Notes: generated by a model not told the origin, from the sequence alone. 64,000 bases of DNA from Bdellovibrionales bacterium (GCA_020630675.1 JAHDIR010000006.1:21132-85131), one strand, 5' to 3'. Positions 1-37,619 are shown, counted from the stretch's first letter. Translations and numbers: made by a program.

Positions 1-159
1 GAAAAAATAAATATTTATAATTATGCCTATGGTTATCCCTGGTTTTATTTTGATCAGAAAAACTTTACTAAGCATTGGTTAGATCGGCTTATACACCTAC
101 CTATGTTTAAAAAACTAAAAGAAAATATAGGGTATAATCAAAGGTCTATGAAAATTTGA
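1..159 (+). CDS. 3' end of an unidentified CDS entering from the left window edge (52 codons, stop TGA 157-159)
   Basis: Frame 1 is open from base 1 (EKINIYNYAYGYPWFYFDQKNF...RSMKI*). It converges on and overlaps the end of the minus-strand radical SAM gene by 22 nt. No family recognised. Confidence 0.3.
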   Translation, partial: EKINIYNYAYGYPWFYFDQKNFTKHWLDRLIHLPMFKKLKENIGYNQRSMKI

Positions 160-992
160 CTGGTCAAACGTTTACGTAACTTTTGAGCCAGGTTGTATAA
201 AATAATATCACTGGTTGGTTTTAAGTCAGCGTAATTTTGCTTAAGGGTTGTAAGTAGTATTTTTTTGGGTTTTAGCATTCCTAAAACCTCAAGCAAATCA
301 CCAAAGTGCTCGTCAGTTGTATTTGAAATTTGCCCACTGACTAACATGGTTTGTACAGATAAATTATGAATTTTTTGCGCGGCAAAAATGAGTTTTTCTA
401 AATTTTGTCTTACAATAGGTGCGTTTAATTTTTTTAAAGTGATATCATCGGAACAATCAATTTTTAAAAATACATCATCAAATTTTTCAGTAGAAGCCAT
501 CGACTTTTTAGTCATAAAATGAGCTCCATTTGTGAGTAAAGTTAAATTAATATGCGAAGCTTTTTCGGCTTTCCATAAGTTAAGGTCAAATGCAATTTCA
601 CTAAATTGAGGGTGGAGGGTCGCTTCGCCGTTACCTGAAATTAGAAGAGTATCAATTTTTTGCCCACCCAACATAATTTCATCAAACTTTTCATTAATGC
701 TAGAAATAATTTCTGCACCAGATGGAAAATTGAGAGTTTTAACGGCGTTAATTTTAGTGGTTGTTTTTCCGAGGTGACAATATTTACAATCGTAGGAGCA
801 AACTTTTTGTGTTAAGGGCAGAATGTTTATCTCTAAGTGATGACCAAAATGTTTATTTTTTTTTAAATCAGAAACAATAGGAAATAGTGATTCGGAATGT
901 TGAGTTTCTTTTTTGATACTGTTCACAAAGGTTAATCGGTAATTAGGTCGAGAATCTAAAGAGATTATGACAGGTCTAAAATTCCTAGCCAA
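138..992 (-). CDS. radical SAM domain protein
   Basis: Canonical CX3CX2C cluster motif (VCSYDCKYCHLG) near the N-terminus and a GNGE-type glycine-rich stretch (ISGNGEATLHP). It is the last gene of the coupled minus-strand operon and overlaps the upstream gene by 28 nt. Confidence 0.8.
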   Translation of the reverse strand: MARNFRPVIISLDSRPNYRLTFVNSIKKETQHSESLFPIVSDLKKNKHFGHHLEINILPLTQKVCSYDCKYCHLGKTTTKINAVKTLNFPSGAEIISSINEKFDEIMLGGQKIDTLLISGNGEATLHPQFSEIAFDLNLWKAEKASHINLTLLTNGAHFMTKKSMASTEKFDDVFLKIDCSDDITLKKLNAPIVRQNLEKLIFAAQKIHNLSVQTMLVSGQISNTTDEHFGDLLEVLGMLKPKKILLTTLKQNYADLKPTSDIILYNLAQKLRKRLTSQIFIDL

Positions 993-1648
993 AAAGGCAG
1001 GTCTTCATTGTTTTGAACTAAGTAATCACTCATATTTTCTAAAGTCAGGCGATCTTTTGTTTGAGGAATAAAATTAAAGGGGTAAATTTTATGACGATGA
1101 ATTAAAATGATTTGATCTTCAGGTTTTACATTAAATTTATGTATATCTATAGAGACCTCTTTATTGAGGCCAAGCATTTTAGTGGGAAGGGGAGCGTATA
1201 TTCTACTTTGATCTCCAAACTCAGAGCTTAGGTCGGGGCTAGTATATAGGAGCTTGAGTTCATTTTTTGTTTTATGAAAAACATGTGGTTGGCCCACTTG
1301 CGCTCTAAATATAGTGTTTTCTACCAGCTGCAAAGCAATGATCTCTACACCCGAAACAAATTCCTCTTTGTTGTATTTTTGGTAATAGTAATTGTGTGCA
1401 AGTAAAAGAGCTGTTCTAAGGTTATTCTCATAAAAATCAAGATGGTCTAAAACCTCGAGAGGGGAAGTGTGGTCATTATCTCGTAGTTTTGAGCTATTGA
1501 AGTTAATAATCATATCTATCATTGGTTGAGGGTTTATAGGCCGTCCCCAAACGTTACAAGAAATAAGAAGTTTAGACGATTCGTCTAGATGAACATGTGG
1601 CGAGGGAAGAGAGTAATGGCTGCTATAAGAACGGTAATTAAACTTCAC
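965..1648 (-). CDS. hypothetical protein with a weak PP2C/SpoIIE-like pattern in which the usual metal-binding Asp positions appear substituted
   Basis: 227-aa ORF with a 4-nt overlap to the FHA gene upstream. GVEIIALQLVENTIFRAQVGQPHVF resembles the PP2C 'vanvGDSR' strand, and EDQIILIHRHKI resembles the 'gD.llLcSDG' strand, but the Asp residues are not conserved. The assignment is tentative. Confidence 0.45.
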   Translation of the reverse strand: MKFNYRSYSSHYSLPSPHVHLDESSKLLISCNVWGRPINPQPMIDMIINFNSSKLRDNDHTSPLEVLDHLDFYENNLRTALLLAHNYYYQKYNKEEFVSGVEIIALQLVENTIFRAQVGQPHVFHKTKNELKLLYTSPDLSSEFGDQSRIYAPLPTKMLGLNKEVSIDIHKFNVKPEDQIILIHRHKIYPFNFIPQTKDRLTLENMSDYLVQNNEDLPFWLGILDLS

Positions 1649-3657
1649 TCCAGACTCTCATATTTATCTAATTTTCTTTTAGCTTTTTGATAATATTCAT
1701 CTGTTTTAATATGTACTTTTAAAATTTCATTCCATTTATCTCTAGCCGCTGAAATATTACCCAGGCTCTCTTCTAAAGCTCCATCTGCATAAAGCCCCTT
1801 AGCCTTTGCCCTTAAATTTTCAAGAGATGAGGTTCTAATGTCTTCTGCTTGGGTGTTTTCAGGAAACTTGTTAAGAACCTTAAGGCAAGAGTAATAGCTA
1901 TCTTTATAGTTTTTATTTTCAAAATTATCTTGGCATATACTCATAAGCTGAGAAGACAATTTTTCTAAGTTGCCTTTTAAGCTTGAGATTTCTCTTTTGA
2001 CCATAGAGGCTTGCCCGTTGGAATGAGAGTAATTCCCTCTTAAGTACTGGTTATAAAGTTGAATTGATTTTTTTAACTGTCCTCTTTTTTTATTTTGTTT
2101 GGCTTGTAACAGTAAACGTTGACCTTGTGCAAGCCTTTGCTGTTTCATTTTATTTTGTTCTACTCTTTGTATTTTATCTAGTTCCATTTGTTCCCACTGA
2201 TTTTCTAAATTTGAAATCATTGGGTGAGCTGGGTTGAGAACAAGTAATGAGTTAAGGCAGTTATCAAGTTGACTTTTATTGGTAAATTTTTTGATTTTTC
2301 TTTGGCAATTCAGTGCGATTTGGTTGGATTTTTTTTCCACCTCTTGAGCTTGGGCTTCGCGCTCAGTCTTAATTTTTTGTTCTTGCTCTAGCTCAAGTCC
2401 TTGTTTGCATAAAACTTCCATGCGTTGAGAGTTTTTAAACTTTGGAATGATTTTATGTAAGCGTTCAATTTCTTCCAAACAAGAAAAGAACTGTTTTTCT
2501 GTGTAATTATTTTTTGCCATATTATAAATGTCTGAAGCAAGAAGCTCTTTTTCTTTTGTAAGACCATTTTGTTTTTTGATCACTTTTTGGTTGCTAGCTA
2601 TGGTTCGATTTTTTCGATGACCTTTTGTTTTGTATCCATATATTGCCGTTACTGTCAGAAGAGCAAGGGCCACCCTCATCAGAAGAATTGATTTATTTCT
2701 TTTTCGAGGAGAAACTATATCATTTTCAATAAATGAATTTTCCCAAGAGTGTGACGCTTCTTGAATGGATTCCACTTGGTAAATTTTTTCTCTGTATTTA
2801 ATGTCTCTAATTTCAATTTGAAGAGTTAACGACTTAATACTGATGGTATCATTGTTATAAAGGCGTATATGTTCTCCTTTTGGGAGTTTTTTTTCATTTA
2901 ACGATGTGCCATTTGAGCTTCCGTAGTCATATATATAGTAACCTTCACTGGTTTTGATAATTTCGAAGTGCTTACGACTTATAAAAGGGTAGTTTAAAAA
3001 TAAACTGCAGTTTTTATCACGGCCCATTAACCAAGAGCTCCCTTCAAGTTCATAAGACTTTTTGGGTTTTCCCGATGATGAAATAATATGTAGGGTGGCA
3101 GTCAGGGAGTTCAGGGCCGTCACAGTGTCTTCATCGGTATTGCTGTTAGGCGCAGTGGTAAGCAGTTGATCTTCTGGTATTTTTTTGGTCACACTGAAGC
3201 CGTCATTATCAGTGACATGAGTGGAGTCAGTCAGAGAGTTTTGTGCTTCAAAGTCGTTTGAGTCTGTGTTTGAGCTTAAAGGTAGAGAGTTCGTTGACTC
3301 TTTTGGTGTGTCGTCAGCACTGGGTAAATTTTCATCAGCTATGCTAACTTCTTGTTGAACTAAATTTTCATTTTTTAAAACAAATTTAAAATTTCGTACA
3401 AAAAACTCATGACCTTCTTTTAATTGCAAGCCTTCAACGAGTTCATTGTCAAATAAGAGTTCTCCTAATTTAGAAACGAGTTGAACTTCAAGGTGTTCTT
3501 CTTCATTAAGAAGTAGTTTGAGGTGAGTTCTTGAAATACCATTTTTTGCCGGTAAAACAATATCGCAGTCACTAGATCTGCCAACACTGTACTCTGTGTT
3601 AGGCTCTAACAAAAACTCATTAATTAGTTTATCTTCCAAGAAGAGAAGAATTTTCAT
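1645..3657 (-). CDS. membrane protein with two N-terminal FHA domains and a long coiled-coil/TPR-like C-terminal region
   Basis: FHA signatures GRSSDCDIVLPAKNGISRTHLKL and GRDKNCSLFLNYPFISRKHFEI...SSNGTSLN. One hydrophobic helix (LLMRVALALLTVTAIYGY), then about 330 aa of K/E/Q-rich sequence. Confidence 0.85.
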   Translation of the reverse strand: MKILLFLEDKLINEFLLEPNTEYSVGRSSDCDIVLPAKNGISRTHLKLLLNEEEHLEVQLVSKLGELLFDNELVEGLQLKEGHEFFVRNFKFVLKNENLVQQEVSIADENLPSADDTPKESTNSLPLSSNTDSNDFEAQNSLTDSTHVTDNDGFSVTKKIPEDQLLTTAPNSNTDEDTVTALNSLTATLHIISSSGKPKKSYELEGSSWLMGRDKNCSLFLNYPFISRKHFEIIKTSEGYYIYDYGSSNGTSLNEKKLPKGEHIRLYNNDTISIKSLTLQIEIRDIKYREKIYQVESIQEASHSWENSFIENDIVSPRKRNKSILLMRVALALLTVTAIYGYKTKGHRKNRTIASNQKVIKKQNGLTKEKELLASDIYNMAKNNYTEKQFFSCLEEIERLHKIIPKFKNSQRMEVLCKQGLELEQEQKIKTEREAQAQEVEKKSNQIALNCQRKIKKFTNKSQLDNCLNSLLVLNPAHPMISNLENQWEQMELDKIQRVEQNKMKQQRLAQGQRLLLQAKQNKKRGQLKKSIQLYNQYLRGNYSHSNGQASMVKREISSLKGNLEKLSSQLMSICQDNFENKNYKDSYYSCLKVLNKFPENTQAEDIRTSSLENLRAKAKGLYADGALEESLGNISAARDKWNEILKVHIKTDEYYQKAKRKLDKYESLE

Positions 3658-4550
3658 TAAAAATTTCCCTCCAATTGATTTTCACAATATTTATAGTTTT
3701 GAGTGGCCTCTTTAAAAAGTTTTTTTGATGGATCTTTAACCAAAAAAGTAACATTTCTAAATGTAGAGCTACAAGCTTGATACTGTTTTTGATCTTTATA
3801 CTTACGGCCTAACACCATATGATATTGAATGAGTTCTTGAATTTTCTTTCTAGATAAGCGTAAGTAACGCTGACAAAGCTCATGTTGAGGCTGTAAAGCT
3901 AGGCATTGTTGGAAGTGGAGTAAGCCACTTTCATACTGGCCTTTTTTAAAGTCTCTAAAGCCTTTGATGTACTGAGCTTGTGCTGGTAAGTTTTTGTTTT
4001 TGTTGCTTTTTTTAAAGTTTGAGTTGAGTAAAACGACGGGGGCAACTTCCCCTTTAGGGGTCACACTGGCAATATTCCTATTCTTAGGCTTAGTATTAGA
4101 AGGGGAGATAAGTTTAAACCCTAAAAGTAAAATCAGTAGACCAATAGTGATGGTCACTGGGTTTATTTTTGATTTTTTTCTTGGGGAGGAATAGTTTTTA
4201 TTTTTAGAAGATTTTTTCTTAGTTGATTTTTCTTTATAGATAATTTGTAATTCACTAGCACCCATCTGAATGACATCAGATTTGGTGACTTGGCTCTGTT
4301 CCATTTCATTTTTGTTAATATAAACTTTATTCTTGTCACTCATGTTTTTAATGTAAACTTTTTTATCACTCAAAATAACTTGGGCATGAAGTCGACTGAT
4401 TCTGTTATCTTTTGCTAATAATACTTCACAAGAGCTATCTCTACCAATTCGACTACGACCTGTTAGGCTTAAGCGAAAAGTCTCTCCTTTGTGCGGTCCT
4501 GCCGTCACTCGAAGATATAAATAAGAAGAGTCTTTTTGCTTACCGATCAC
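3657..4550 (-). CDS. FHA domain membrane protein with a TPR-like C-terminal part
   Basis: FHA signature GRDSSCEVLLAKDNRISRLHAQV, a Lys/Ser-rich linker, a TM helix (VTITIGLLILLLGFKLI) and a C-terminal helical repeat region. The start overlaps the upstream stop (4 nt) and the stop overlaps the next start (1 nt). Confidence 0.85.
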   Translation of the reverse strand: MIGKQKDSSYLYLRVTAGPHKGETFRLSLTGRSRIGRDSSCEVLLAKDNRISRLHAQVILSDKKVYIKNMSDKNKVYINKNEMEQSQVTKSDVIQMGASELQIIYKEKSTKKKSSKNKNYSSPRKKSKINPVTITIGLLILLLGFKLISPSNTKPKNRNIASVTPKGEVAPVVLLNSNFKKSNKNKNLPAQAQYIKGFRDFKKGQYESGLLHFQQCLALQPQHELCQRYLRLSRKKIQELIQYHMVLGRKYKDQKQYQACSSTFRNVTFLVKDPSKKLFKEATQNYKYCENQLEGNF

Positions 4551-6130
4551 TCTTGATCCTCTTTAGGAATAAAAGAAACAATGAAATAACTAATGTCATT
4601 TTTTCCATAGATAGAGGACATCATAATTTCATAATTGGCTCCTGATATTTCAAGCTCGTTTTGGTTCATTTGTCCTGGATTTAAAGAAGATTGGTCAAGT
4701 AAGTCTTTGAGGCTTAGTTTGAGGGCCTGATCATTTAATTGTTCAAGAGTGAGTCCAAGGTTATCTGGGCCTAAACCAATGCTTTCTGCGGCACTGGCGT
4801 TGATGGCCGCGATGGCTTGATGGGGATTGGTAATAGCTAACGCCGGAAACCCAATCATTTGTATAACGTTATTTATTTCATAAGTTCTATCATACTCACT
4901 GGTAGAGGATAAACTCATGCTATCATTGGGTGATCTTGAGAGAGAACTGTTTATGTTAGAAATTAGTTTTTGAGCACTTTCTAAGTTGTAATTGAGCTTA
5001 ATATTTCCTGTTGGGTTTTTTAGCTCTTCGTTGAGCTGAGCATTTATATTGACAAAAGGGTATTCAAAAAGCTTAAAGACAAAAAACATAAGTAAGCTAC
5101 CCACGATCAAAGCAATAAATAAAACTTGAATGTACAAGCTGATAGTGCGTCCATCATCTATAGCTAAAGAGCCCATGTCGTATAAAATAAATGAGTAAGC
5201 CGCAACGGAATGATTGCCAGTGTTGGCATTATAAAAGCTCATTGGAACGATGGCTCCAATTTCATTATGTGAAATTTGTTGAACTTGAGTTTTACCCTCT
5301 TGTCGGGCGGTATGAATAAAAGGAATATCAAGGTGTTCTCCAGCCTTTGAGGATGGGGCAATGACAGATCCATTGGCGTTTATAATAAGTGCTTGAAGAA
5401 CTCCAGCTTCGTTGGCTGCCGAATTAAGCTGCAACGAAGAGTGTAGCCCTTGGGCTAAGGTAGACTTATTAATTTCTGCTAAATTTTTTGCAATGGTTAG
5501 AGCTCTTCGTTGACTCTCTTTTTCAATACTCGATTTTAGAAGATTAATCGCAGGAAACGTTGAGAGAACTGTGATTAGAAAAATAATAGAACCCAATAGC
5601 CCGGCGAGAACCCACTTAAAGTCAAACCATTCAGCCAACTTATAAACTCCAGGTAAAACCACTTCGTCGAGATAGTTATTTAATTTGTCTTTATAGTCAG
5701 CAGAGGCACTCATTGGGTTTATTAAATTTTCTTTTGGTTCATCATGAATTGGTTCAGAATAGTTTAACGCTTGTGAGTCAACGGCGAGATGACCTAGTGA
5801 TTGAGGAGCGGCAAAGTCTACCGATGAAGGAGCAACGGTCATCGCTTGTTTTGTTATGGTTATGACAACATCATGTAAAGTAATTTTATCAGATTCTTTA
5901 ATAATTTGTTGATGAACTTGAACGCCATTAACAAAAGTTCCATTCCTTGAGTTTAAATCTGTTAAGTAAACCCCTTGATTTTTTATATTTAGTTGTGCAT
6001 GTTTTTTTGAAACTTGTGAAGATTCAATCACAATATCGGCCTGAAGAGATCGACCGATGATAAGTTGAGGTTTATCAAGAGGAAAACTTTGACCGGCTTG
6101 AGGGCCAGAAAGAATATTAAGTACCAACAT
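4547..6130 (-). CDS. FHA domain protein with two TM helices flanking a periplasmic sensor-like domain and a C-terminal cytoplasmic domain
   Basis: FHA signature GRSLQADIVIESSQVSKKHAQL...SRNGTFVNG. TM helices WVLAGLLGSIIFLITVLSTF and IQVLFIALIVGSLLMFFVF are separated by about 140 aa. Confidence 0.85.
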   Translation of the reverse strand: MLVLNILSGPQAGQSFPLDKPQLIIGRSLQADIVIESSQVSKKHAQLNIKNQGVYLTDLNSRNGTFVNGVQVHQQIIKESDKITLHDVVITITKQAMTVAPSSVDFAAPQSLGHLAVDSQALNYSEPIHDEPKENLINPMSASADYKDKLNNYLDEVVLPGVYKLAEWFDFKWVLAGLLGSIIFLITVLSTFPAINLLKSSIEKESQRRALTIAKNLAEINKSTLAQGLHSSLQLNSAANEAGVLQALIINANGSVIAPSSKAGEHLDIPFIHTARQEGKTQVQQISHNEIGAIVPMSFYNANTGNHSVAAYSFILYDMGSLAIDDGRTISLYIQVLFIALIVGSLLMFFVFKLFEYPFVNINAQLNEELKNPTGNIKLNYNLESAQKLISNINSSLSRSPNDSMSLSSTSEYDRTYEINNVIQMIGFPALAITNPHQAIAAINASAAESIGLGPDNLGLTLEQLNDQALKLSLKDLLDQSSLNPGQMNQNELEISGANYEIMMSSIYGKNDISYFIVSFIPKEDQE

Positions 6131-6479
6131 ATAATAAATCCCCCTGGTTTAAGTTTTGCACATTTTTATTTTTGGCCGTGCACTCTAAAACAGCCCAAGC
6201 TCCAAAAACGGGGGCCGCCAGTCGGAATGGCAAGACATTTTTTTGAATTTTTATAATTTCATATTTTTTTGAAAGATAAATAATATCAATACTAAACTTC
6301 ATAAAAAAAGTGTGTATCCATTGAAAGCCGGTACTGGTAATTAGAAATGCTTCATTTTCATCTAGAGGACTTCTGAACATTAAACCATTGTTGCGTTTAA
6401 AAAAGTCACTGGGTTTTTCAACAGAATTAAAAATAATAGCTCCTGTTTTTTTGTTTGTACAAACGAGAGGTGATTTCAT
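6117..6479 (-). CDS. DUF192 family protein
   Basis: Small protein with the DUF192-like pattern GLMFRSPLDENEAFLI...IHTFFMKFSIDIIYL...AVLECTA...GDLL. It is coupled to both neighbours. Confidence 0.6.
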   Translation of the reverse strand: MKSPLVCTNKKTGAIIFNSVEKPSDFFKRNNGLMFRSPLDENEAFLITSTGFQWIHTFFMKFSIDIIYLSKKYEIIKIQKNVLPFRLAAPVFGAWAVLECTAKNKNVQNLNQGDLLYVGT

Positions 6480-7375
6480 TAATTTCCTCCTGTTACAAAC
6501 TGGATAATCACAGGTGCAAAAACCATGATGAATACCGCGGGTAAAATAAAAAGCATCATAGGTATCATAATAGCTTGCGAGGCTTTGGCCCCTGCTTTTT
6601 CAGCACGAACAAAGCGCTCAAGTCTCATTTGAACAGACTGGTCCTTTAAGACTTGTGCAATACTTGCGCCAGTTTGATCGGCATCAATGACCACGGCACA
6701 AAAACTTGTGGCTTCAGGAATATCTAGTCTTTGTGACATTTTTCTTAGGGCATCAGCTCGAGAGCTTCCCAGCTTTATGTCTTTAAGTACGATAGAAAAT
6801 TCATTGGCAAGTGGGGTGTCTTTGGCTTTGTCGACAATTCTTTGTATGGCTCCGATGAAGTCTAACCCGGCTTCTGTTGACAAAGCTAATATATCTATGA
6901 AGAAGGGGAGCTCAACCACCACTGAAGTCGTTCTTTGTTTTTTTTCTGTGGCACAATAAAAATTGGGGAAGAACCAACCGAGAAGGCCAAGAACAAAGCA
7001 GAATACGGGGCTAAACCCTAACTGTAAGGCAAAGTTGAGTATAAACATGAGGGCGGGAGCCGCGACTCCCCATAAAATTTGTAAGCCAATAAACTCATCA
7101 ACATTCAGTTCTTGCGACAAACCAGCCGTTAAAATTTTATTTTCTACTTTACTACGATAATTCTCGTTTTTTACTTTTTGAGCGTAGCCAAGAGTAAAGT
7201 TATGAACCATAGACCTTGAAAAGTTAACAACAGGAGATTTTGATTTATTGGGTTCATCACCAGCGCCCCAAGCTAAGGCATCATTAGACGCTGTATTTTT
7301 GAGCAGGGTTGAGACAAATAGATAAACACTAAAACCAATCAAGCTCAGTGATGAGATTAAAATTATTGTGTTCAT
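6479..7375 (-). CDS. tadC: type II secretion system F family protein, Tad pilus platform (TadC/TadB-like)
   Basis: About 300 aa with an N-terminal TM, a single T2SS-F domain (ELPFFIDILALSTEAGLDFIGAIQRIV) and C-terminal TM helices. This is the typical TadB/TadC architecture. Confidence 0.8.
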   Translation of the reverse strand: MNTIILISSLSLIGFSVYLFVSTLLKNTASNDALAWGAGDEPNKSKSPVVNFSRSMVHNFTLGYAQKVKNENYRSKVENKILTAGLSQELNVDEFIGLQILWGVAAPALMFILNFALQLGFSPVFCFVLGLLGWFFPNFYCATEKKQRTTSVVVELPFFIDILALSTEAGLDFIGAIQRIVDKAKDTPLANEFSIVLKDIKLGSSRADALRKMSQRLDIPEATSFCAVVIDADQTGASIAQVLKDQSVQMRLERFVRAEKAGAKASQAIMIPMMLFILPAVFIMVFAPVIIQFVTGGN

Positions 7376-7418
7376 AAGTTCTAGTTGCTCCTTAAATTAT
7401 TTTCAGTCATATATAAGT

Positions 7419-8030
7419 ATGCTTAATTTAATTCTTGCCTCATCTTCTCCGCGTCGCCGTGAAATCCTATTAAAGTTTGGTTATAAATTTGAAGTAGTTA
7501 CAGTACAAACATCGGAAATATTTGAAGAAAACCTGAGCTTTGAGGACGCTTTATTGTTAATTTCTCAAACAAAAGTACAGGCCACTCTTAACTCTTTTTC
7601 ATCTCCTTTAGAAAGCCCGACCTTGGTCGTAGGAGCTGACACCGTCGTTTGTCTGGGTGACCAAGTTTTAGGCAAACCTTTAGATAATAGACAGGCCTTT
7701 GATTTTTTAAGTCGTCTTTCGGGTCAAATTCATCAAGTTAAAACATCCGTAAATATCTTTCACTCAGGGCTAAAAGAATGGGCGGGTTTTGTCGAAACCA
7801 CTCAAGTGAAAATGAGAAACCTTTCAAATGGCGAGATCGAAGCTTATATTCAGTCGGGAGAGCCTCAGGGAAAAGCCGGTGCCTATGCTATTCAAGGAAA
7901 AGGTGGAAAGTTGGTTGAATCTTTTCAGGGCTCTTGGCACAATGTTGTAGGCTTTCCTATAGAAAGTTTTGAAAACCTTATTCAGCAAAAAGGTTGGTCA
8001 CTTGATGTCCATTCAGGAAAACCTAAATAA
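7419..8030 (+). CDS. maf: Maf-like nucleoside triphosphate pyrophosphatase (septum formation inhibitor family)
   Basis: N-terminus MLNLILASSSPRRREIL and the C-terminal GAYAIQG motif. ATG 7419 was chosen over the upstream in-frame ATG at 7368. Confidence 0.9.
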   Translation: MLNLILASSSPRRREILLKFGYKFEVVTVQTSEIFEENLSFEDALLLISQTKVQATLNSFSSPLESPTLVVGADTVVCLGDQVLGKPLDNRQAFDFLSRLSGQIHQVKTSVNIFHSGLKEWAGFVETTQVKMRNLSNGEIEAYIQSGEPQGKAGAYAIQGKGGKLVESFQGSWHNVVGFPIESFENLIQQKGWSLDVHSGKPK

Positions 8031-8676
8031 AATTTTAAAACAAATTGAAGGCCTGAATTTACCACCTCACCGTTCCATTGAAATTGTTTCGGCGTGCAAA
8101 GCACAACCGATTCAAAAAATTGAAGAGGCGGTGAGTGCCGGTGTAAACGCTTTTGGGGCAAACTATGTCAATGAATTTTTGCTGCAAAAAAAGGAACTTC
8201 AGCAAAATTTAAATTGGCATTTTATTGGTTCTCTACAAAGTAATAAGTTAAAAAATATTGTAGGTGAAGTCAGTTTAATCCACTCTGTGAGTCGTTTTTC
8301 TACATTGACTAAAATAAATAAATTAGCCAAAGAAAAAAAAATAATTCAAGAGGTTTTACTGCAGTTAAATTTGTCAGGTGAAGACACTAAGTCTGGATTT
8401 AATGAATCAGATTTATTTGATAGTTTTGAAGAAGCCTTGGCTTTGTCTTCAGTGAGAGTGAGTGGGCTTATGACCATGCCTCCCGTTGGAGCCGGGGAGT
8501 TTTACTTTAAAAAGTTAGCACAAATTAAAGAGACACTAAATGATCAGTTTAACCCTGGATTGCCTATAGAAAAACTATCTATGGGAACCTCAGATGATTA
8601 TTTACAAGCTATTCAAGCTGGAGCAACACATATTCGCTTAGGAACTGTTTTAATGGGAAGAAGGAGTTATCAATGA
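8005..8676 (+). CDS. yggS: YggS family pyridoxal-phosphate-binding protein
   Basis: Conserved ...ACKAQP...AFGANYVNE and the C-terminal MGTSDDY...IRLGT pattern. ATG 8005 was preferred over 7969. Confidence 0.9.
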   Translation: MSIQENLNKILKQIEGLNLPPHRSIEIVSACKAQPIQKIEEAVSAGVNAFGANYVNEFLLQKKELQQNLNWHFIGSLQSNKLKNIVGEVSLIHSVSRFSTLTKINKLAKEKKIIQEVLLQLNLSGEDTKSGFNESDLFDSFEEALALSSVRVSGLMTMPPVGAGEFYFKKLAQIKETLNDQFNPGLPIEKLSMGTSDDYLQAIQAGATHIRLGTVLMGRRSYQ

Positions 8677-9503
8677 GTTTGAAAAATACTAAAGTTGGTT
8701 TTATAGGCTGCGGAAATCTTGCTCAAGCGATTTTAAAGTCTGTTCTTGTTAATAATATAATGTCTAAAGATCAGTTTGCATTTACCAATAGGTCTGAAGC
8801 CAAAGCTAATAAAATCAAAAGTGATTTTGGCATTTCGTCTTATGATAGTAATGATGAATTAATTGATAGTTCGGATATTGTTATTATTGCTGTTAAACCT
8901 CAAGATTTTCTCGAGGCGGTTGAGCCTTTTGTGTCAAATTTCAGGCCAGAACAAATTGTTGTTAGTTTAGCGGCAGGAGTTGATTTTAAGTCTTTACAAG
9001 CTTTAGTGACAACGACTCCTCGTTTAGTAAGAGTTATGACTAATACGCCCGCATCAGTGTCCAAAGGGGTTGTTGGCTATTACCATTCTCGAGAAGACGG
9101 ACCGTTGGATTCAACCATTGAATATATATTTGGAAGTTTGGGCCGCGTATATCCATTAAAAGATGAAGACGAGTTTGCAGCCTTTACGGTGGCTGTTTGT
9201 AGTGGAGTGGGCTTTATTTTTGAAATTATGTCGTATTGGTCGGAGTGGATGGAGCAGTATGGAATTAGTCGATTAGCCGCTGAAAATATGATTTTAGATA
9301 CTTTTAAAGGCACTGTTTTATTGGCCGAACAAAATAGTGATATGTCGTTAACCCAATTGCAAGATAAAGTCGTCTCTAAAAAGGGAGTCACGCAAGCAGG
9401 CCTGGACGCCATGAATGAAATGGAGTTAGAGCGTTTGTTTAGGGTTTCTTTTGAAAAAGCAGTTATGAGAGACAAGGAGTTAGCGAAATTTATTAGCCCT
9501 TAG
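8673..9503 (+). CDS. proC: pyrroline-5-carboxylate reductase
   Basis: N-terminal Rossmann motif GFIGCGNLAQA, internal VRVMTNTP and C-terminal SKKGVTQAG, typical of ProC. ATGA overlap with yggS. Confidence 0.9.
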   Translation: MSLKNTKVGFIGCGNLAQAILKSVLVNNIMSKDQFAFTNRSEAKANKIKSDFGISSYDSNDELIDSSDIVIIAVKPQDFLEAVEPFVSNFRPEQIVVSLAAGVDFKSLQALVTTTPRLVRVMTNTPASVSKGVVGYYHSREDGPLDSTIEYIFGSLGRVYPLKDEDEFAAFTVAVCSGVGFIFEIMSYWSEWMEQYGISRLAAENMILDTFKGTVLLAEQNSDMSLTQLQDKVVSKKGVTQAGLDAMNEMELERLFRVSFEKAVMRDKELAKFISP

Positions 9504-9591
9504 TCGAGTTAGCAGGACCTAGAATGTATTCCAGTAGTCAGACCTTAAAGTCGTGAGTACAATGAAAAACAGCAAAAAAAGGGTGGTTAAA

Positions 9592-10173
9592 ATGAAAATA
9601 GCTCCAATAGATATAGCTCATAAAAGTTTTACTCGTAAAATGATGGGGTTAGATCCTGATGAGGTCATGAGCTTTCTAAAGACAGTTTCTGATGAGATGG
9701 AAAGTCTAATCAGTGAAAGAAACAACTTAAGGCAGAGCTTACGAGATAAAGAGTTAGCTATCATCGAATTCAAAGAAAGAGATGAGCTTCTTAAAAACAC
9801 GATTACAACAGCCACTAAAATGTCCGATAAAATTCGTGTAGATGCAGAAAGAGAATCAAGACTTCTTTTAAATGACGCTAATCAAAAAGGTGAGGCGATT
9901 GTTCGTGATGCTCGCGATTCTTTGAAGCGAATTTATCAAGAAATTACTGACTTGAAAAAAATTAGAATGCAGTTTGAAAATAATTTAAAAGCCCTGATTC
10001 AATCTCACCTTACAATGATGGAACAGGGGCAAAATGTAATGCCTAGCCCTAAAGTTGGGCATGAAACAGCTGCTCAGCCAAGAAGGTCCATGCTCAATGA
10101 TGATGAGCAAATCAAGGCCAATATTTCACAGGCTATTTCTAAAGCGACTCAAGTCAATTTAGATATTGAGTAG
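9592..10173 (+). CDS. divIVA: DivIVA domain cell-division/polarity protein
   Basis: Starts MKIAPIDIAHKSFTRKMMGLDPDEVMSFL (classic DivIVA N-terminus) followed by coiled coil. GTG 9553 and ATG 9562 are alternative upstream starts. Confidence 0.85.
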   Translation: MKIAPIDIAHKSFTRKMMGLDPDEVMSFLKTVSDEMESLISERNNLRQSLRDKELAIIEFKERDELLKNTITTATKMSDKIRVDAERESRLLLNDANQKGEAIVRDARDSLKRIYQEITDLKKIRMQFENNLKALIQSHLTMMEQGQNVMPSPKVGHETAAQPRRSMLNDDEQIKANISQAISKATQVNLDIE

Positions 10174-15856: not shown

Positions 15857-17308
15857 TTGCCTCAGTATACTTTAGCCCTTGTTTGCATTTTAACTTTTTC
15901 TTTTTCCCAGGCGGCATTAACTGAAAGAGGCCTTTCTCGTTTTACACAAAAAATTGAAAAACAAATAAAAAAGAGCCGTTTACCTAAGGGGCATTTAGGG
16001 CTTTCGGTGAGTGTGATCTCTGAAGGTCAACCTCATGAGCTCTATAACTTAAACTCAACTAAAAAGTTTATACCAGCCTCTTTGACAAAAGTTCCCACAG
16101 CTCTAGCCGCTTTTCATATTTTAGGTTTAGAGCATAAGTTTTTAACTACGTTAGAGGCCAATAGCCCCGTAGTTAAAGGTCGCTTAACGGGCTCTTTGTA
16201 TTTAGTCGGCCATGGAGATCCTGCTTTTACGTCTGAATCTATGTGGTCTTTAGTGAATGAGTTTAAAAGAGCTAAAATTCATACCATTGAAGGCGATATT
16301 GTTGTTGATGATACTTTTTTTGATTCAGAAAGATATGATCAAAATAGAGATCCGCATCGTAAAGACAGAGCTTATGATGCTCCGGTGGGAGCAATGTCTT
16401 TTAACTGGAACTCCGTTAATATTTTTGTACGCCCTACGCAAAAAGGGCAACCTCCATCAGTATATATTGACCCCATTGATAGTTATTTTAAAGTTATTAA
16501 TAAAGCAAAAACCATCGCTGGCCGTCGACAACGTTTAAAGATTAGTCGCATTAAAAATAAAGATCAAAGTCAGTTTCCTTTTGAAACCATTGTTATTTCT
16601 GGCAGTATTGGTCGAAAAGCTAAGGAGTATGTTTCATATAAAAGTATCACTCGCCCAGAAGTTTGGTCAGGCTATAATTTGAAAGCCTTTTTACTACAGA
16701 GAGGAGTTAAAGTTTTAGGAGCTGTTAAAATCGGGAAAAAACCAGGTTCTACAAAAGTTCTTTCTAAATATGAAAGCTTATCATTATCTCATGCTATTCA
16801 AAGTATGAATAAGTATTCCAATAATTTTGTGGCAGAAATGTTAATCAAAAATATTGCCGCTCAATCTCGACGTCCAGGAACGATGAATTATGGTTTAAAA
16901 AAAGTGAATGAATATTTACAAAAAATAGGGTTAGAGTCTGAGCATTATAATTATGAAAATGCTTCGGGTTTAACAAAAAATAATTTTTTTCGCCCTGTTG
17001 ATTTCACACAAATGCTCGTCGGTGCTCAGCAAGACTCTTCCATATTTCCTGAGCTTTTAACTTCTTTGCCAATATCAGCCCTTGATGGCACTTTAAAGAA
17101 ACGGATGACTCAACTCTATTCGGCCAAAAAAGTGCGAGCCAAAACAGGAATGTTAAATGAAGTGAGTGGTTTAGCTGGTTACATAAAAAAAGAAGCAAAA
17201 ACCTATGTGTTTACTTTCTTGTATAACGGGCCTTCTCAGAAAAATAAAGAGGCAAGAGATCTCTTCGACTACCTAACCGAAGCTATTGTTGTTTTTAATG
17301 ATCGTTAA
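15857..17308 (+). CDS. dacB: D-alanyl-D-alanine carboxypeptidase/endopeptidase, PBP4 (S13) family
   Basis: SxxK (PASLTKV), SxN (YSNNFVAE) and KTG (KTGML) motifs with PBP4-type spacing, plus a signal peptide. TTG start. Confidence 0.85.
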   Translation: MPQYTLALVCILTFSFSQAALTERGLSRFTQKIEKQIKKSRLPKGHLGLSVSVISEGQPHELYNLNSTKKFIPASLTKVPTALAAFHILGLEHKFLTTLEANSPVVKGRLTGSLYLVGHGDPAFTSESMWSLVNEFKRAKIHTIEGDIVVDDTFFDSERYDQNRDPHRKDRAYDAPVGAMSFNWNSVNIFVRPTQKGQPPSVYIDPIDSYFKVINKAKTIAGRRQRLKISRIKNKDQSQFPFETIVISGSIGRKAKEYVSYKSITRPEVWSGYNLKAFLLQRGVKVLGAVKIGKKPGSTKVLSKYESLSLSHAIQSMNKYSNNFVAEMLIKNIAAQSRRPGTMNYGLKKVNEYLQKIGLESEHYNYENASGLTKNNFFRPVDFTQMLVGAQQDSSIFPELLTSLPISALDGTLKKRMTQLYSAKKVRAKTGMLNEVSGLAGYIKKEAKTYVFTFLYNGPSQKNKEARDLFDYLTEAIVVFNDR

Positions 17309-18420
17309 AAAAATGATTGCACCATTTGTAGGTCGTTGGATTTTTCTTTTTCATAGGAGTAAATTTCTTCTAAAATAAACCCATGACTTTCTAAAGAACT
17401 GATTTGGTGAATGCTTTTAAGGTGCCTTTGCGAATGTTCGCATCCAACGGTAATGATTATGTTTAAACTCAATTGGATCAATTGACGAATGGCTTGTAAA
17501 CTCCATTGAGGAGCTCCTAATTGAATGAGCATTTCTAAACGAATTAAAGCCTGACGGGGGTGGTTGGCATGCATGGAGCAAAGCCCCCCTTCATGACCTG
17601 TCGATAGGGCCATCAAATAATCTTTGGCTTCTGAGCCACGAATTTCACCTATGATTAAGCGTTGAGGGCGCATTCTTAAGCTTTGCTTTAATAGGTCTGA
17701 CTGATCATATGTGCGAAGATCAGAAAACTGCTCTGTGCGTGTAAGAAGTTTTGTGCTTGATACGTTTGGGCATATGAGTTCATTTGTATCTTCAATAATG
17801 ACACATCTATCAAGCGGGTCGAGAACTTGTAAGCAAGAATTTAGAATGGTTGTTTTTCCTGAGCCTGTGGGGCCAACGATGAGTATATTTTTCTGATCTT
17901 TAATAGATTGCAAGATATATTCAATTTCTCGTGGCTGGGCCCATTGGTTTTCTTCTAGTTTTTTAAAGTTCCAACTATTCATAGAGTGCCGTCGAAGTGT
18001 GACGCAAGTTTTTTTTGTGATGGGCTTACAAATAATATGAACACGAAAGTTTTTCCAACTTGTATTTAAGTGCGGAGTTTTTAAATCAATTTGAGTTTTT
18101 GTTTCAAAAGTAATTTTATGTATAAAATTCTCAAAAGTTCTAGGTGAGTAAAACTCATCATTATGTTTTATGAAACGTCCCTTTTCTTCATAAATAATAC
18201 CATCATATCCGTTAATAATAATTTCGCTAATATTTTGGTTTTCGATGAGAGAGTGTAAGGGGCCATAGTTAAAAAACTCATTAATTATTCGATCTTGAAT
18301 TTCAATGGGTTCATTATTGATTTCATTGCGTACGTAATGCTGTAAGTCTTGATCTGAGTAGCTATCGCTTCGGTCTTTAATAATTTGATGGGCTTGTTTG
18401 TAAAAGCATTTTTGTAACAT
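17305..18420 (-). CDS. cpaF: Tad/CpaF-family secretion ATPase
   Basis: Walker A GPTGSGKTT, Walker B/Asp box RLIIGEIRGSEA and the His box region GHEGGLCSMHAN, typical of CpaF/TadA/VirB11-like ATPases. Confidence 0.85.
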   Translation of the reverse strand: MLQKCFYKQAHQIIKDRSDSYSDQDLQHYVRNEINNEPIEIQDRIINEFFNYGPLHSLIENQNISEIIINGYDGIIYEEKGRFIKHNDEFYSPRTFENFIHKITFETKTQIDLKTPHLNTSWKNFRVHIICKPITKKTCVTLRRHSMNSWNFKKLEENQWAQPREIEYILQSIKDQKNILIVGPTGSGKTTILNSCLQVLDPLDRCVIIEDTNELICPNVSSTKLLTRTEQFSDLRTYDQSDLLKQSLRMRPQRLIIGEIRGSEAKDYLMALSTGHEGGLCSMHANHPRQALIRLEMLIQLGAPQWSLQAIRQLIQLSLNIIITVGCEHSQRHLKSIHQISSLESHGFILEEIYSYEKEKSNDLQMVQSFF

Positions 18421-18427
18421 AATTTTT

Positions 18428-19681
18428 TTACCTTGAGCTGGAAATTAGCTGGGGGGTGACAATTAAGATCACCTTATAATTTTGATGACTTTGATCATTG
18501 GCCCCAAGTAGTCGACCTAATAGGGGAGTGTGGGCAAAAGGAGCGAGACCATTTTTGGTATGAGAAGATTTTTTTGAAGTGAGCCCTGTGACGACAATAC
18601 TCTGAGTATTTTTTGTGAAAATAGAAGTGTTTAGTTTTTTTATACGAATTCCTGGAATATTATTAATACTCATTTTGGCATCAGGGTAGGAGGCTTCGTA
18701 ATTCAGATTGAGCTTTATGGTTTCACCAGCAAGAAGTTTTGGTAAAAATTTAAAGCGAATGCCAAATGATTTCCAAGTGACTTGGCTATTGGTAAAACCA
18801 CTAGTTCTAATAGGAAGCTCACCTCCATCAGTGAATTCACATTCGTGGTTCACTTCACAAACTAAGCTGTTTTGAGAAAGTACACTAATGCTTCCTTTGC
18901 CGACGGCTTGATTGAGTGTTGTGGTCAAGCTAGAGAGGTCTTTAAATGAGCTCATAAGTTGAGCTTTAAAACTTCCTTCCCATGAAAGTCCCAAGGTTTC
19001 AGAGCTTGATTGACTAACTTCTGCAAAAGCCAAATTAAGTTTTATTTGTTTTGAGATTTGTTCTGCCTTATAGGTTTTCACCGGTACTCCTAATAAACCT
19101 AGGGCATAATCAAACTCTTGGTTTTGGTTGCCTTCCAAGCGATAAACCACTGGCTGCGGCTGAAATTTAAAATTGGGAATGAGTTGTGAATATTGTAGCA
19201 ATAAAGGTTTTAATTTTTTCTGGGCGATAAGTTGAACATCTGAATCCACATGGGCAGTCAGAGTGTAGGTGTGTTGTTTTTCTAGAGCCAGTTGATTGAG
19301 TTGCTGCCAGTCTTTCCAGCGATAAAGCTGACCAGAAATTTGAATTTGGTTATTGATGAAATTTGCTTTTAGCCCTTTCATTTTTTGAACAAGGTTTACA
19401 AAGTTTTTAAACAAATGAGAGTTTTGCTGAGATACGATTTGTAAATTATAAATGCGATCATGAGCTTTAATGGTGCAAAAGCCCTCTTGTTTGGCTTTTA
19501 TCTTTAATTGTAGCCCTTGATCTTGCCAAGAAATAATTTTGCCATTTGATATTTTAATAGGGTCGCTTTGATGAATGGGCAATAAAAGGTTTTGTCCGAC
19601 CTCAAGAACATAGTCTTTGGCAAAACTACAACTTAAAAAAAGAAAGGTTAAAGCTAGAGCAGTAAGAGTTTGTCTTGTCAT
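18428..19681 (-). CDS. cpaC: CpaC/RcpA-type secretin
   Basis: Signal peptide, an N-terminal pilus-N domain (LEVGQNLLLPI...IKISNGKIISW...GFCTIKA...YNLQIV), a C-terminal secretin domain and the typical end VILIVTPQLI. Confidence 0.75.
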   Translation of the reverse strand: MTRQTLTALALTFLFLSCSFAKDYVLEVGQNLLLPIHQSDPIKISNGKIISWQDQGLQLKIKAKQEGFCTIKAHDRIYNLQIVSQQNSHLFKNFVNLVQKMKGLKANFINNQIQISGQLYRWKDWQQLNQLALEKQHTYTLTAHVDSDVQLIAQKKLKPLLLQYSQLIPNFKFQPQPVVYRLEGNQNQEFDYALGLLGVPVKTYKAEQISKQIKLNLAFAEVSQSSSETLGLSWEGSFKAQLMSSFKDLSSLTTTLNQAVGKGSISVLSQNSLVCEVNHECEFTDGGELPIRTSGFTNSQVTWKSFGIRFKFLPKLLAGETIKLNLNYEASYPDAKMSINNIPGIRIKKLNTSIFTKNTQSIVVTGLTSKKSSHTKNGLAPFAHTPLLGRLLGANDQSHQNYKVILIVTPQLISSSR

Positions 19682-36848: not shown

Positions 36849-36867
36849 AGCCCCTCCTTTTTTAGAG

Positions 36868-37542: not shown

Positions 37543-37619
37543 AGATTTAACTTAATAGAATTTAAGAAATGTCACAATGAGAGTCGTCCTTTGCAGAATT
37601 TTCAAACTTGAAAATTGGC

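Follow-up and report, generated by a model that had tools for sequence, protein, structure and literature searches.

The 64-kb window analysed here, a single stretch of 64,000 nucleotides from a Bdellovibrionales bacterium, begins with what we read, at a probability of roughly two in three, as the tadC operon of a predator of this order whose FHA proteins would span the membrane as a phosphothreonine-reading checkpoint on the Tad machine. Six genes make up one operon, headed by a lone TadC-type platform gene to which five accessory genes are translationally coupled. The locus is a new copy, from an uncultured relative of Bdellovibrio, of a known operon. Because sequence, gene order and flanking genes all agree with those of Bdellovibrio bacteriovorus HD100, the cluster is the orthologue of the HD100 tadC operon Bd0470-Bd0475. 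That set has been named an operon (Duncan et al. 2019, PMC6561027; PMC12034629) and its region the 'tadC locus' (preprint 10.64898/2026.07.08.737194, Tesseur et al. 2026); for B. bacteriovorus the literature already holds phenotypes of mutants together with their complementation, localisation data and one partner from a two-hybrid assay. A first-pass annotation had found the gene combination not assignable to any described system, a view that gives way to the match with Bd0470-Bd0475, for which phenotypes are in print and which is largely the kind of characterised Tad/Kil locus whose orthology the annotation had itself set against its reading.

ORF calling returned seven co-directional ORFs, all on the minus strand, between 7375 and 138 (Table 1); they carry the domains first ascribed to them, as judged with Pfam for all but the 227-aa protein, which has no Pfam match. 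The annotation held that every junction abuts or overlaps, which is true of the first six genes (overlaps at 6479, 1 nt; 6117-6130, 14 nt; 4547-4550, 4 nt; 3657, 1 nt; and 1645-1648, 4 nt) and fails at the junction with the radical SAM gene (965-992). In the nearest relative, L082, independent gene calls give an identical pattern of 1, 14, 4, 1 and 4 nt. Estimated gaps at the successive junctions of related loci have medians of -4, -14, +8, +2 and 0 nt (n=46), the -14-nt DUF192/FHA overlap being nearly universal among them. Given this conservation in L082 and the related loci, the packing of the first six genes is not due to chance. The gap estimates also place the accessory genes in coupling with tadC in every lineage looked at.

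Table 1. Features of the tadC operon and of the Tad-type pair found elsewhere in the window (positions counted from the first letter of the window).
Feature	Coordinates	Strand	Basis
tadC, T2SSF domain, 298 aa	6479..7375	-	Pfam T2SSF, E 3e-18
DUF192 protein, 120 aa	6117..6479	-	Pfam DUF192, E 2.6e-13
FHA sensor-like membrane protein, 527 aa	4547..6130	-	Pfam FHA/Yop-YscD_cpl; Bd0472 position
FHA-TM-TPR protein, 297 aa	3657..4550	-	Pfam; Bd0473 position
2xFHA-TM-helical/TPR protein, 670 aa	1645..3657	-	Pfam, two FHA stretches; Bd0474 orthologue
Predicted PP2C-fold pseudophosphatase, 227 aa, soluble	965..1648	-	AF2/Foldseek; Bd0475 position
Small radical SAM protein, 262 aa (start GTG 926)	138..926	-	weak Radical_SAM match, CxxxCxxC
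Divergent intergenic region tadC/maf, 43 bp	7376..7418	.	sequence inspection
Secretin (417 aa) and TadA/VirB11-like ATPase (371 aa)	17305..19681	-	Pfam Secretin, T2SSE; outside the operon

The conserved unit comprises six genes and not seven, because a radical SAM gene lies downstream in only 8 of 39 loci. Co-conservation across relatives was thus upheld for the six genes, whose order and domains are identical in L001, in L082 and in about 40 more loci from Bdellovibrionales, that of Bdellovibrio sp. qaytius among them, and not for the radical SAM gene, which is absent 3' of the 227-aa gene in 31 of the 39 related loci with room for it. The 28-nt overlap first described for that gene (965-992) is an outcome of taking the longest ORF (TTG 992, 284 aa). 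A public gene call for the same protein gives 262 aa, equivalent to GTG 926, the closest homologues have 260-262 aa, and the orthologues start about 22 aa ahead of the Cys motif; GTG 926 is the most likely start, leaving a gap of 38 nt to the 227-aa gene, and in L082 the corresponding gap is 87 nt. The Pfam match is weak (30.1 bits, cut-off 29.5), and CxxxCxxC and a GNGEPT segment are conserved across nine sequences. The product belongs to the radical SAM superfamily, and its gene is a lineage-specific neighbour, outside both the core and the device.

On the other side of the operon, Maf, YggS, ProC and DivIVA are encoded divergently on the plus strand (7419-10173), and the same YggS/ProC/DivIVA flank is found in HD100 as Bd0466, Bd0465 and Bd0464. 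The HD100 locus also has six genes of the same order and domain content, and Bd0474 and Bd0475 have 674 and 228 aa (PMC6561027; PMC12034629) against 670 and 227 aa here. The two loci differ in their host, here an uncultured lineage of low GC content (about 35%), unlike HD100; in the radical SAM gene and convergent sulfatase gene that lie downstream here and in a minority of lineages; and in the dcw cluster, which is near the operon here and not nearby in HD100. Among the Bdellovibrionales loci set beside this one, the accessory proteins reach only about 21-40% identity to those here, and those of B. bacteriovorus, the source of the functional data, only about 25-30%.

The first gene encodes TadC, the orthologue of Bd0470 and KilH; the Tad (type IVc) pilus machine has two platform subunits in the inner membrane, of which TadC is one. 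Its residues 200-288 share 74% identity with the B. bacteriovorus row of the KilH block (eLife Kil supermatrix), 72% with B. exovorus and 39% with M. xanthus KilH; over TadC, identity is 52-68% across Bdellovibrionales loci and 57-59% to Bdellovibrio sp. loci. Bd0470 is itself listed as the KilH orthologue, as a reciprocal-best match (PMC8460266). In B. bacteriovorus, lasting attachment to prey and invasion both depend on the Tad machine, tadC stands apart from the main tad locus, TadC-mCherry localises to the invasive pole and a tadC deletion was not obtained (10.64898/2026.07.08.737194), and a Bd0470::Tn mutant neither attaches to prey nor kills or rounds it, a defect that was complemented (PMC6561027; PMC12034629). 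Here, an AAGGAG ribosome-binding site lies 10 nt 5' of the tadC ATG, within 7376..7418. The tadC promoter must overlap this short region or the 5' end of maf; none was assigned because a promoter scan of the tadC/maf region gave scores no better than those of shuffled sequence.

In 48 related loci the DUF192 gene follows tadC and precedes the 527-aa gene, the position held by Bd0471; its product has neither signal peptide nor transmembrane helix and is predicted to be cytoplasmic. For the three FHA proteins that follow, the membrane location first proposed is confirmed by a hydropathy scan, with two, one and one transmembrane helices in the 527-, 297- and 670-aa proteins. The 527-aa protein has an N-terminal FHA domain, a disordered linker, a first helix (168-200), a periplasmic PAS/Cache-like domain, a second helix (328-360) with a long helical extension, and last a PAS domain in the cytoplasm. 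Its AF2 model (mean pLDDT 80.6) has the WalK sensor kinase model 9a5d_A as its top Foldseek match (E 1e-13, 382 columns), although a different domain arrangement keeps the global TM-score low (0.37), and its FHA part matches GarA/OdhI/DgcB. Pfam detects neither DHp (HisKA) nor HATPase_c in this protein, and the model closes with PAS at residue 522 of 527, so that the protein is a WalK-like sensor devoid of a kinase core.

The 297-aa protein matches Yop-YscD_cpl (E 5e-15), FHA (E 1.5e-11) and TPR_2 (E 6e-4) in Pfam, with a cytoplasmic FHA domain, a basic linker, a transmembrane helix (129-152) and a periplasmic TPR-like domain, and is paralogous to the FHA2-linker-TM part of the 670-aa protein (28% identity over 157 aa). 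In the latter, the helix spans residues 322-342 and the linker between the FHA domains is hypervariable, with Thr178 kept in all 47 aligned sequences. Its B. bacteriovorus counterpart Bd0474, which has two FHA domains and an extracytoplasmic TPR domain, is attack-phase specific and binds Bd0075 in a two-hybrid assay; the Bd0474::Tn mutant attaches to prey without rounding or killing it, was complemented, and is defective in predation after attachment, not in growth (PMC6561027; PMC12034629). The class II phenotype of this mutant could partly come from polarity on Bd0475. An AF-Multimer ipTM of 0.60 is reported for Bd0473 with Bd0475 (PMC6561027; PMC12034629).

The FHA domains keep their phosphothreonine-binding residues, and phosphothreonine binding is predicted. 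In the 527-aa protein, GR, SxxH and NG occur in at least 80% of 57 sequences, and FHA2 of the 670-aa protein reaches the same 80% level; FHA1 of the latter protein, which lacks the Asn, and the 297-aa protein conserve GR and SRxH.

The last of the six genes starts at GTG 1648, as backed by a conserved N-terminus, and its product belongs to a family of 378 representatives of about 225 aa. The AF2 model (pLDDT 94, pTM 0.91) shows the PPM fold, a beta-sandwich with helices on its flanks, and matches the PP2C phosphatase tPphA in Foldseek (E 7e-13, TM 0.70), the T6SS phosphatase PppA ranking ninth, and the family HMM matches a genuine Pfam PP2C_2 protein (E 1e-10). The description of this protein as PP2C-like without the usual Asp was well founded: in the comparison of the family profile with tPphA (E 2e-4), the GDSR Asp is replaced by Gln and the SDG Asp by Arg, and no Asp is invariant or at least 90% conserved among the 41 aligned family members. 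We therefore class it as a putative PP2C-fold pseudophosphatase that has lost the metal-binding aspartates of the phosphatase motifs (DGxGG, GDSR, SDG and the C-terminal DN), and not as a phosphatase. In the literature searched, we found neither this pseudophosphatase nature of the 227-aa/Bd0475-type protein, nor the WalK-like, kinase-core-less reading of the 527-aa protein, nor the conservation of the FHA phosphothreonine-binding residues.

The other ORFs of at least 120 aa in the window were searched with Pfam, and the whole 64 kb was scanned for motifs in six frames. The absences reported earlier stand: these searches found no Ser/Thr kinase (no Pkinase match in the ORFs, no HRDxKxxN motif in any frame), pilin, prepilin peptidase, second platform protein or TadZ, and no kilG, kilB or kilK/L/M pilin genes in the window. 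This is not a complete Tad/Flp cluster, as it holds a single T2SSF protein without pilin motif, peptidase or TadZ. Two Tad-type parts had been overlooked about 10 kb from the tadC operon, a secretin (18428-19681, minus strand) and a TadA/VirB11-like ATPase (17305-18420, minus strand) whose best NCBIfam match is the TadA family TIGR03819 (E 1e-50). This pair is possibly a second Tad module comparable to B. bacteriovorus rcpA2-tadA2, which is reported to be dispensable; the same scattering of Tad genes is reported for HD100 (10.64898/2026.07.08.737194). The window also contains the whole dcw cluster.

How could such a set act on a pilus machine? We propose that the FHA proteins cross the membrane at the Tad platform and serve it as an adaptor or checkpoint. 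On the periplasmic side, their domains, PAS/Cache-like in the 527-aa protein and TPR-like in the 297- and 670-aa proteins, would sense the state of the envelope or contact with prey and may bind partners such as a Bd0075-type TPR protein, while the FHA domains would dock on phosphothreonine sites produced by a kinase whose gene lies elsewhere. The dead PP2C may be a non-hydrolysing binder of phospho-sites or a partner of the FHA domains, locking or masking one state, and the output would be a licence for the post-attachment step, prey remodelling and entry. It is tempting to speculate further, in a version that we hold to be possible and offer only tentatively, that the six-gene unit is the kinase-less 'reader' half of a threonine-phosphorylation checkpoint on the Tad pilus machine, in which a WalK-like sensor with an FHA output, two TPR-bearing FHA adaptors and a PP2C pseudophosphatase that binds phospho-sites would turn prey contact into a licence to invade. 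The invariant Thr178 in the linker of the 2xFHA protein and the invariant T61-S-P-F/L motif of the pseudophosphatase are candidate phospho-sites. If true, it would define for the first time a signalling route by which Bdellovibrio-like predators pass from attachment on prey to entry, and a PP2C pseudoenzyme would have been put to a new use.

In an alternative, structural reading, the three FHA-TM proteins would be phospho-independent, SctD-like blocks of an inner-membrane ring or cage around TadB/TadC, replacing accessory Tad parts, with the PP2C-like and DUF192 proteins as assembly chaperones. SctD (YscD/PrgH) has an N-terminal cytoplasmic FHA fold, a single TM helix and a large periplasmic part, a topology shared here; the Pfam scores of Yop-YscD_cpl equal or exceed those of FHA in the 527- and 297-aa proteins, MXAN_4649 beside kilH is annotated as PrgH-like, and published cryo-ET shows several trans-envelope assemblies at the invasive pole. 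However, the Bd0474 mutant attaches whereas the tadC mutant does not, so that the machine does not need Bd0474 to mediate attachment. The residues that bind phosphothreonine are missing from SctD-type FHA domains, which are phospho-independent, unlike those of this operon, and the ring-building motifs of SctD are not found in the periplasmic parts, the 527-aa protein being PAS/Cache-like there and the other two TPR-like or helical. We thus consider a ring unlikely.

A view close to that of the first-pass annotation is that of an undescribed envelope system that captured a TadC-like protein, works apart from the Tad pilus and counts the radical SAM enzyme among its integral components. The accessory genes are indeed without characterised function, tadC is remote from the main tad locus of B. 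bacteriovorus and the window lacks tadB and pilin genes. Against this stand the reciprocal-best match between Bd0470/TadC and KilH, the interaction of TadC with TadB/TadZA and its requirement in Flp pilus assembly, which the preprint already largely implies (10.64898/2026.07.08.737194), and the loci, 31 of 39, in which no radical SAM gene follows, which together make such a module very improbable. We give equally little credence to a regulator of envelope growth or division, the counterpart of the actinobacterial FhaA-FhaB-PstP module of peptidoglycan synthesis, to which the tadC link would be incidental. FhaB/FipA is the best NCBIfam match of all the FHA domains, but far under the cut-off and over the FHA domain only; the operon is divergent from maf-yggS-proC-divIVA and shares the window with the dcw genes, but these are not near the locus in HD100, the set is coupled to tadC in every lineage looked at, and Bd0474, specific to the attack phase, affects predation after attachment and not growth.

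The checkpoint that we favour has partial parallels in known systems. In the P. aeruginosa T6SS pathway TagQRST-PpkA-Fha1-PppA, an FHA scaffold, a PP2C-fold protein and periplasmic sensors likewise gate an envelope machine; unlike that pathway, the operon and window have no Hanks kinase, the PP2C-fold protein lacks the catalytic Asp and the FHA proteins span the membrane themselves. With WalK-type kinases the 527-aa protein shares the succession of TM helix, extracytoplasmic PAS/Cache, TM helix, linker helix and cytoplasmic PAS; unlike them, it stops after PAS, without DHp and catalytic ATPase domains, and bears FHA at its N-terminus. The link to Tad/Kil drawn in the annotation was correct. 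In cluster 2 of the M. xanthus Kil system (MXAN_4648-4661; Seef et al. 2021, PMC8460266), kilH adjoins FHA genes as tadC does here, being flanked by the FHA/PrgH-like MXAN_4649 and the FHA and TPR protein MXAN_4648, a likeness to the 527- and 297-aa FHA proteins that rests on domain content, TadC and KilH themselves being only 39% identical. That cluster differs in also having kilG (tadB), kilB and pilin genes and in listing no DUF192 or PP2C-like gene. The Kil system resembles the present one in its over-representation of FHA proteins and its predatory function (PMC8460266), and M. xanthus KilD, an FHA and TPR protein, forms foci where prey is contacted and does so in mutants of the kil machine as well, which puts KilD upstream of the machine.

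The seven co-directional minus-strand ORFs within 138-7375 of the window, with the domains named for them in the first-pass annotation, are borne out by the ORF map, Pfam and NCBIfam. The proposal made there that they form an undescribed envelope-spanning system does not hold, because the locus itself is already known and is not a discovery: on gene order, flanking genes, protein sizes and the sequence match of TadC, the string is the orthologue of the Bdellovibrio bacteriovorus HD100 tadC locus Bd0470-Bd0475 (PMC6561027, PMC12034629), named by Tesseur et al. (2026 preprint, 10.64898/2026.07.08.737194), and orthology to a characterised Tad/Kil locus is thus largely established. A search with the 527-aa protein returned hundreds of full-length homologues at 36-55% identity, the named ones coming from Bdellovibrionales, Bdellovibrionaceae or Pseudobdellovibrionaceae. 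When one genome per species was scanned with the same protein, ~55 loci gave full-length matches, all in Bdellovibrionota (including the complete Bdellovibrio sp. qaytius genome and one Bacteriovoracaceae MAG); outside this phylum there was no full-length match, the FHA domain alone being matched. By tblastn of the window proteins, the order TadC, DUF192, FHA-527, FHA-TPR, 2xFHA, 227-aa is kept on a single strand in every locus whose contig extends far enough, with TadC at 52-68% identity in most loci (31-40% in L053 and L054, the two most distant) and the accessory proteins at 21-40%.

The flank points the same way. Divergent Maf-YggS-ProC-DivIVA genes lie upstream in related loci too, and in HD100 Bd0464, Bd0465 and Bd0466 are DivIVA, ProC and YggS (PMC7186360). 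Bd0470 is a T2SS-F protein encoded apart from the main tad locus Bd0110-0119 and the reciprocal-best orthologue of KilH, the TadC platform protein of the Kil prey-killing system of Myxococcus xanthus (PMC8460266, supplementary file 2). In the tadC-operon papers Bd0473 is an FHA protein, Bd0474 a 674-aa protein whose two FHA domains are cytoplasmic and whose TPR domain is extracytoplasmic, and Bd0475 a 228-aa hypothetical protein, the counterparts of the last two measuring 670 and 227 aa in the window.

Features of the window, with family matches from Pfam/NCBIfam and transmembrane (TM) helices from a hydropathy scan
Feature	Position (nt)	Strand	Length (aa)	Matches and remarks	TM helices
Sulfatase-family gene	1-159	plus		cut by window start	
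Radical SAM protein		minus		borderline Radical_SAM, 30.1 bits (cut-off 29.5); CxxxCxxC motif	0
227-aa protein	965-1648	minus	227	none	0
T61 codon, 227-aa protein	1466-1468				
670-aa protein		minus	670	two FHA stretches	1
Thr178 codon, 670-aa protein	3124-3126				
297-aa protein		minus	297	FHA; weak TPR match	1
527-aa protein		minus	527	FHA/Yop-YscD_cpl	2
DUF192 protein		minus	120	DUF192	0
tadC product		minus	298	T2SSF	
LspA (signal peptidase II) homologue	11038-12009	minus	323	Peptidase_A8, residues 12-151 only	
Response-regulator/GGDEF diguanylate cyclase	14859-15767	minus		PleD-like	
ATPase	17305-18420	minus	371	best NCBIfam matches TadA-family, TrbB, VirB11	
Secretin	18428-19681	minus	417		
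ORF upstream of secretin	19806-20516		236	no family match	
dcw cluster	22296-53956				
Blocks of unannotated ORFs in dcw cluster	31333-33231, 35342-38291, 42438-44563	minus			
MurG, N-terminal domain	39104-39556	plus			
MurG, C-terminal domain	39484-40170	plus			
Ig-like/ASH-domain protein	44789-48250		1153		

Within the first six genes the junctions overlap by 1, 14, 4, 1 and 4 nt, as first described. The same pattern is found, from independent public gene calls, in the nearest relative (locus L082, whose 527-aa protein is 55% identical). Estimated over related loci, the median distances at these junctions are -4, -14, +8, +2 and 0 nt, and in 46 loci the DUF192/FHA overlap of 14 nt is essentially invariant; the overlaps are thus clearly not due to chance. 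No promoter or terminator was assigned, since consensus scans returned counts equal to those in shuffled sequence.

The end of the string must be revised. The 28-nt overlap at 965-992 rests on the first TTG of the open frame, whereas the public call for the radical SAM gene, starting at GTG 926 (262 aa), leaves a gap of 38 nt (87 nt in L082). The four closest homologues are 260-262 aa long, and in an alignment of orthologues (n=9) the others start ~22 residues ahead of the Cys motif. Sequence extends 1 kb or more beyond the 227-aa gene in 39 related loci; the radical SAM gene lies 3' of the 227-aa gene in eight of these and has no detectable copy within the locus in the others. Of the seven genes initially proposed, six make up the conserved unit on this distribution and the radical SAM gene does not belong to the core. 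Both the distribution and the gap led us to reject the idea that the enzyme modifies a component of the system. A convergent sulfatase-family gene runs with its last codons into the 3' end of the radical SAM gene, and the radical SAM/sulfatase/ExbB-ExbD neighbourhood is shared with L082 and another close relative, L001, the nearest relatives, which stood in for sequence beyond the left window edge. PDB sequence searches with the radical SAM and DUF192 proteins returned nothing informative, and a literature search for DUF192 and pili gave no work on the pairing.

The 227-aa protein allows a sharper annotation. Its public gene call covers only 185 aa, an automated choice that obscures part of the fold as well as the coupling to the gene upstream; because the first 42 residues carry the family-invariant P15, P17, W34 and G35, the longer reading from GTG 1648, with its 4-nt overlap, is upheld. 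The family (378 representatives at 50% clustering, ~225 aa) receives marginal Pfam SpoIIE matches in just 4 of 41 members. An AlphaFold2 model from 41 sequences (pLDDT 94, pTM 0.91) is best matched by the PP2C phosphatase tPphA (E 7e-13, TM 0.70), then by MsPP, the T6SS regulator PppA, Stp1 and PstP. The 41-sequence family profile also reaches tPphA by sequence (E 2e-4); a four-sequence profile gave no match in the PDB. In the tPphA alignment, the Asp of GDSR is replaced by Gln and that of SDG by Arg, and among the 41 sequences none of the Asp positions reaches 90% conservation, let alone invariance. The confident fold model, the tPphA match and the motif replacements agree with the first-pass view of a PP2C-like protein without the usual Asp residues, and since a PP2C fold is combined with the lack of any conserved Asp, we predict that the protein is a PP2C-fold pseudophosphatase, an assignment that receives no mention in the tadC-operon papers examined.

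The family HMM also matches a genuine Pfam PP2C_2 protein in L059, a locus from a Myxococcales MAG (E 1e-10), a match that supports the PP2C homology of the family. As a Kil counterpart L059 was rejected: it has a genuine PP2C and a DgcB-like FHA-GGDEF protein and no T2SSF gene. The 639-aa genuine-PP2C protein lies ~5 kb from the DgcB-type protein (3238-5157 and 9917-10816 of L059), a further pairing of FHA and PP2C in a predatory lineage.

The hydropathy scan recovered the TM helix expected in each of the three FHA proteins. In the model of the 527-aa protein (pLDDT 80.6), residues 1-94 form an FHA domain and 97-140 a disordered linker; then come a TM helix, a periplasmic alpha/beta PAS/Cache-like domain (~236-323) and a second TM helix running into a long helix, while 416-522 make up a C-terminal PAS domain. 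In structure it is closest to the sensor kinase WalK (382 columns, E 1e-13); the protein ends after the PAS domain, without DHp or ATPase core, and the model thus depicts it as sensor-kinase-like without a kinase core. The phosphothreonine-binding GR, SxxH and NG positions are at least 80% conserved among ~55 orthologues in its FHA domain and in the second FHA domain of the 670-aa protein; GR and SRxH are kept in the first FHA domain of the latter and in the 297-aa protein, which is a paralogue of the 670-aa protein over its FHA2-linker-TM part. Residue Thr178 of the 670-aa protein, present in 47 of 47 aligned sequences, sits in an otherwise hypervariable acidic linker just ahead of FHA2, and the 227-aa protein has an invariant T61-S-P-F/L motif; each is a candidate phospho-acceptor site or FHA ligand.

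The absence from the window of a Ser/Thr kinase, pilin, prepilin peptidase, second T2SSF protein and TadZ, already remarked in the first-pass annotation, was confirmed by Pfam scans of the other ORFs of at least 120 aa and by six-frame searches for prepilin motifs (Flp/type IV) and for the catalytic loop of Hanks kinases. The window also contains a secretin gene directly upstream of an ATPase gene, ~10 kb from tadC, a pair that had been overlooked. A diguanylate cyclase gene lies between the tadC region and this pair; prey invasion by Bdellovibrio is under c-di-GMP control. The LspA homologue bears a C-terminal extension of ~170 aa with further hydrophobic segments. Near divIVA, unlike in HD100, lies a complete dcw cluster (MraZ, MraW, FtsI, MurE, MurF, MraY, MurD, FtsW, MurG, MurC, MurB, FtsQ, FtsA, FtsZ), broken by minus-strand blocks of unannotated ORFs and with the Ig-like/ASH-domain protein between murB and ftsQ. 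MurG occupies two overlapping ORFs in different frames, which could reflect a frameshift, an assembly error or a real split gene.

The data show a tadC gene that belongs to a Tad machine of the predation type and has five conserved accessory genes translationally coupled to it. In B. bacteriovorus, Bd0470::Tn cells do not attach to, kill or round prey, whereas Bd0474::Tn cells, the sole class II mutant among eleven followed up, attach normally and neither round nor kill prey; both mutants were complemented. The TPR membrane protein Bd0075 is a two-hybrid partner of Bd0474, and AF-Multimer gives Bd0473 and Bd0475 an ipTM of 0.60. The tadC gene proved refractory to deletion, and at the invasive pole TadC-mCherry co-localises with both RomR and RcpA (Tesseur et al. 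2026 preprint). Because the Bd0474 mutant still attaches and the tadC mutant does not, we favour a role of the FHA set as a checkpoint or adaptor licensing a post-attachment step over a role in building the pilus. The three FHA proteins would span the inner membrane, exposing to the cytoplasm domains able to read phosphothreonine and to the periplasm a PAS/Cache-like ligand or state sensor and protein-binding TPR-like domains, one of which binds Bd0075 in the model organism. The pseudophosphatase would probably bind a phospho-site or an FHA protein without turnover, and the kinase must be encoded elsewhere.

The main rival, in which the FHA proteins form an SctD-like ring independently of phosphorylation, sits poorly with the retained phosphothreonine pockets, with periplasmic folds that are not of ring type and with the class II phenotype. 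Weaker still are the readings of the genes as an independent module apart from the Tad machine or as a cell-division system: both conflict with the invariant coupling to tadC and with what has been published on TadC.

Among loci bearing on how Bdellovibrio-like predators pass from attachment to entry, the tadC operon is one of the few in which mutants part the two steps, since the Bd0474 mutant attaches and stops there. Divergent Bdellovibrionales share the six-gene unit together with its pattern of overlaps; the value of the present analysis lies in this six-gene definition, from which the radical SAM gene is removed, and in sharper annotations (a putative pseudophosphatase, a predicted kinase-less sensor, FHA domains retaining phosphothreonine-binding residues) that make the mechanism testable in the cultured model.

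FHA/TPR genes near tadC were remarked on by Tesseur et al. (2026 preprint), and in M. xanthus kilH is flanked by MXAN_4649 (FHA, PrgH-like) and MXAN_4648 (FHA+TPR) (PMC8460266). KilD, an FHA+TPR protein of M. xanthus, still forms foci at the contact with prey when the Kil machine is broken, and reviews have proposed FHA proteins as a link from contact to behaviour. The secretin/ATPase pair is similar to "tad locus 2" (rcpA2-tadA2) of B. bacteriovorus, a dispensable module. Residues 200-288 of the window TadC match the KilH block of the Kil supermatrix with an identity of 74% in B. bacteriovorus, 72% in B. exovorus, 48% in H. marinus and 39% in M. xanthus.
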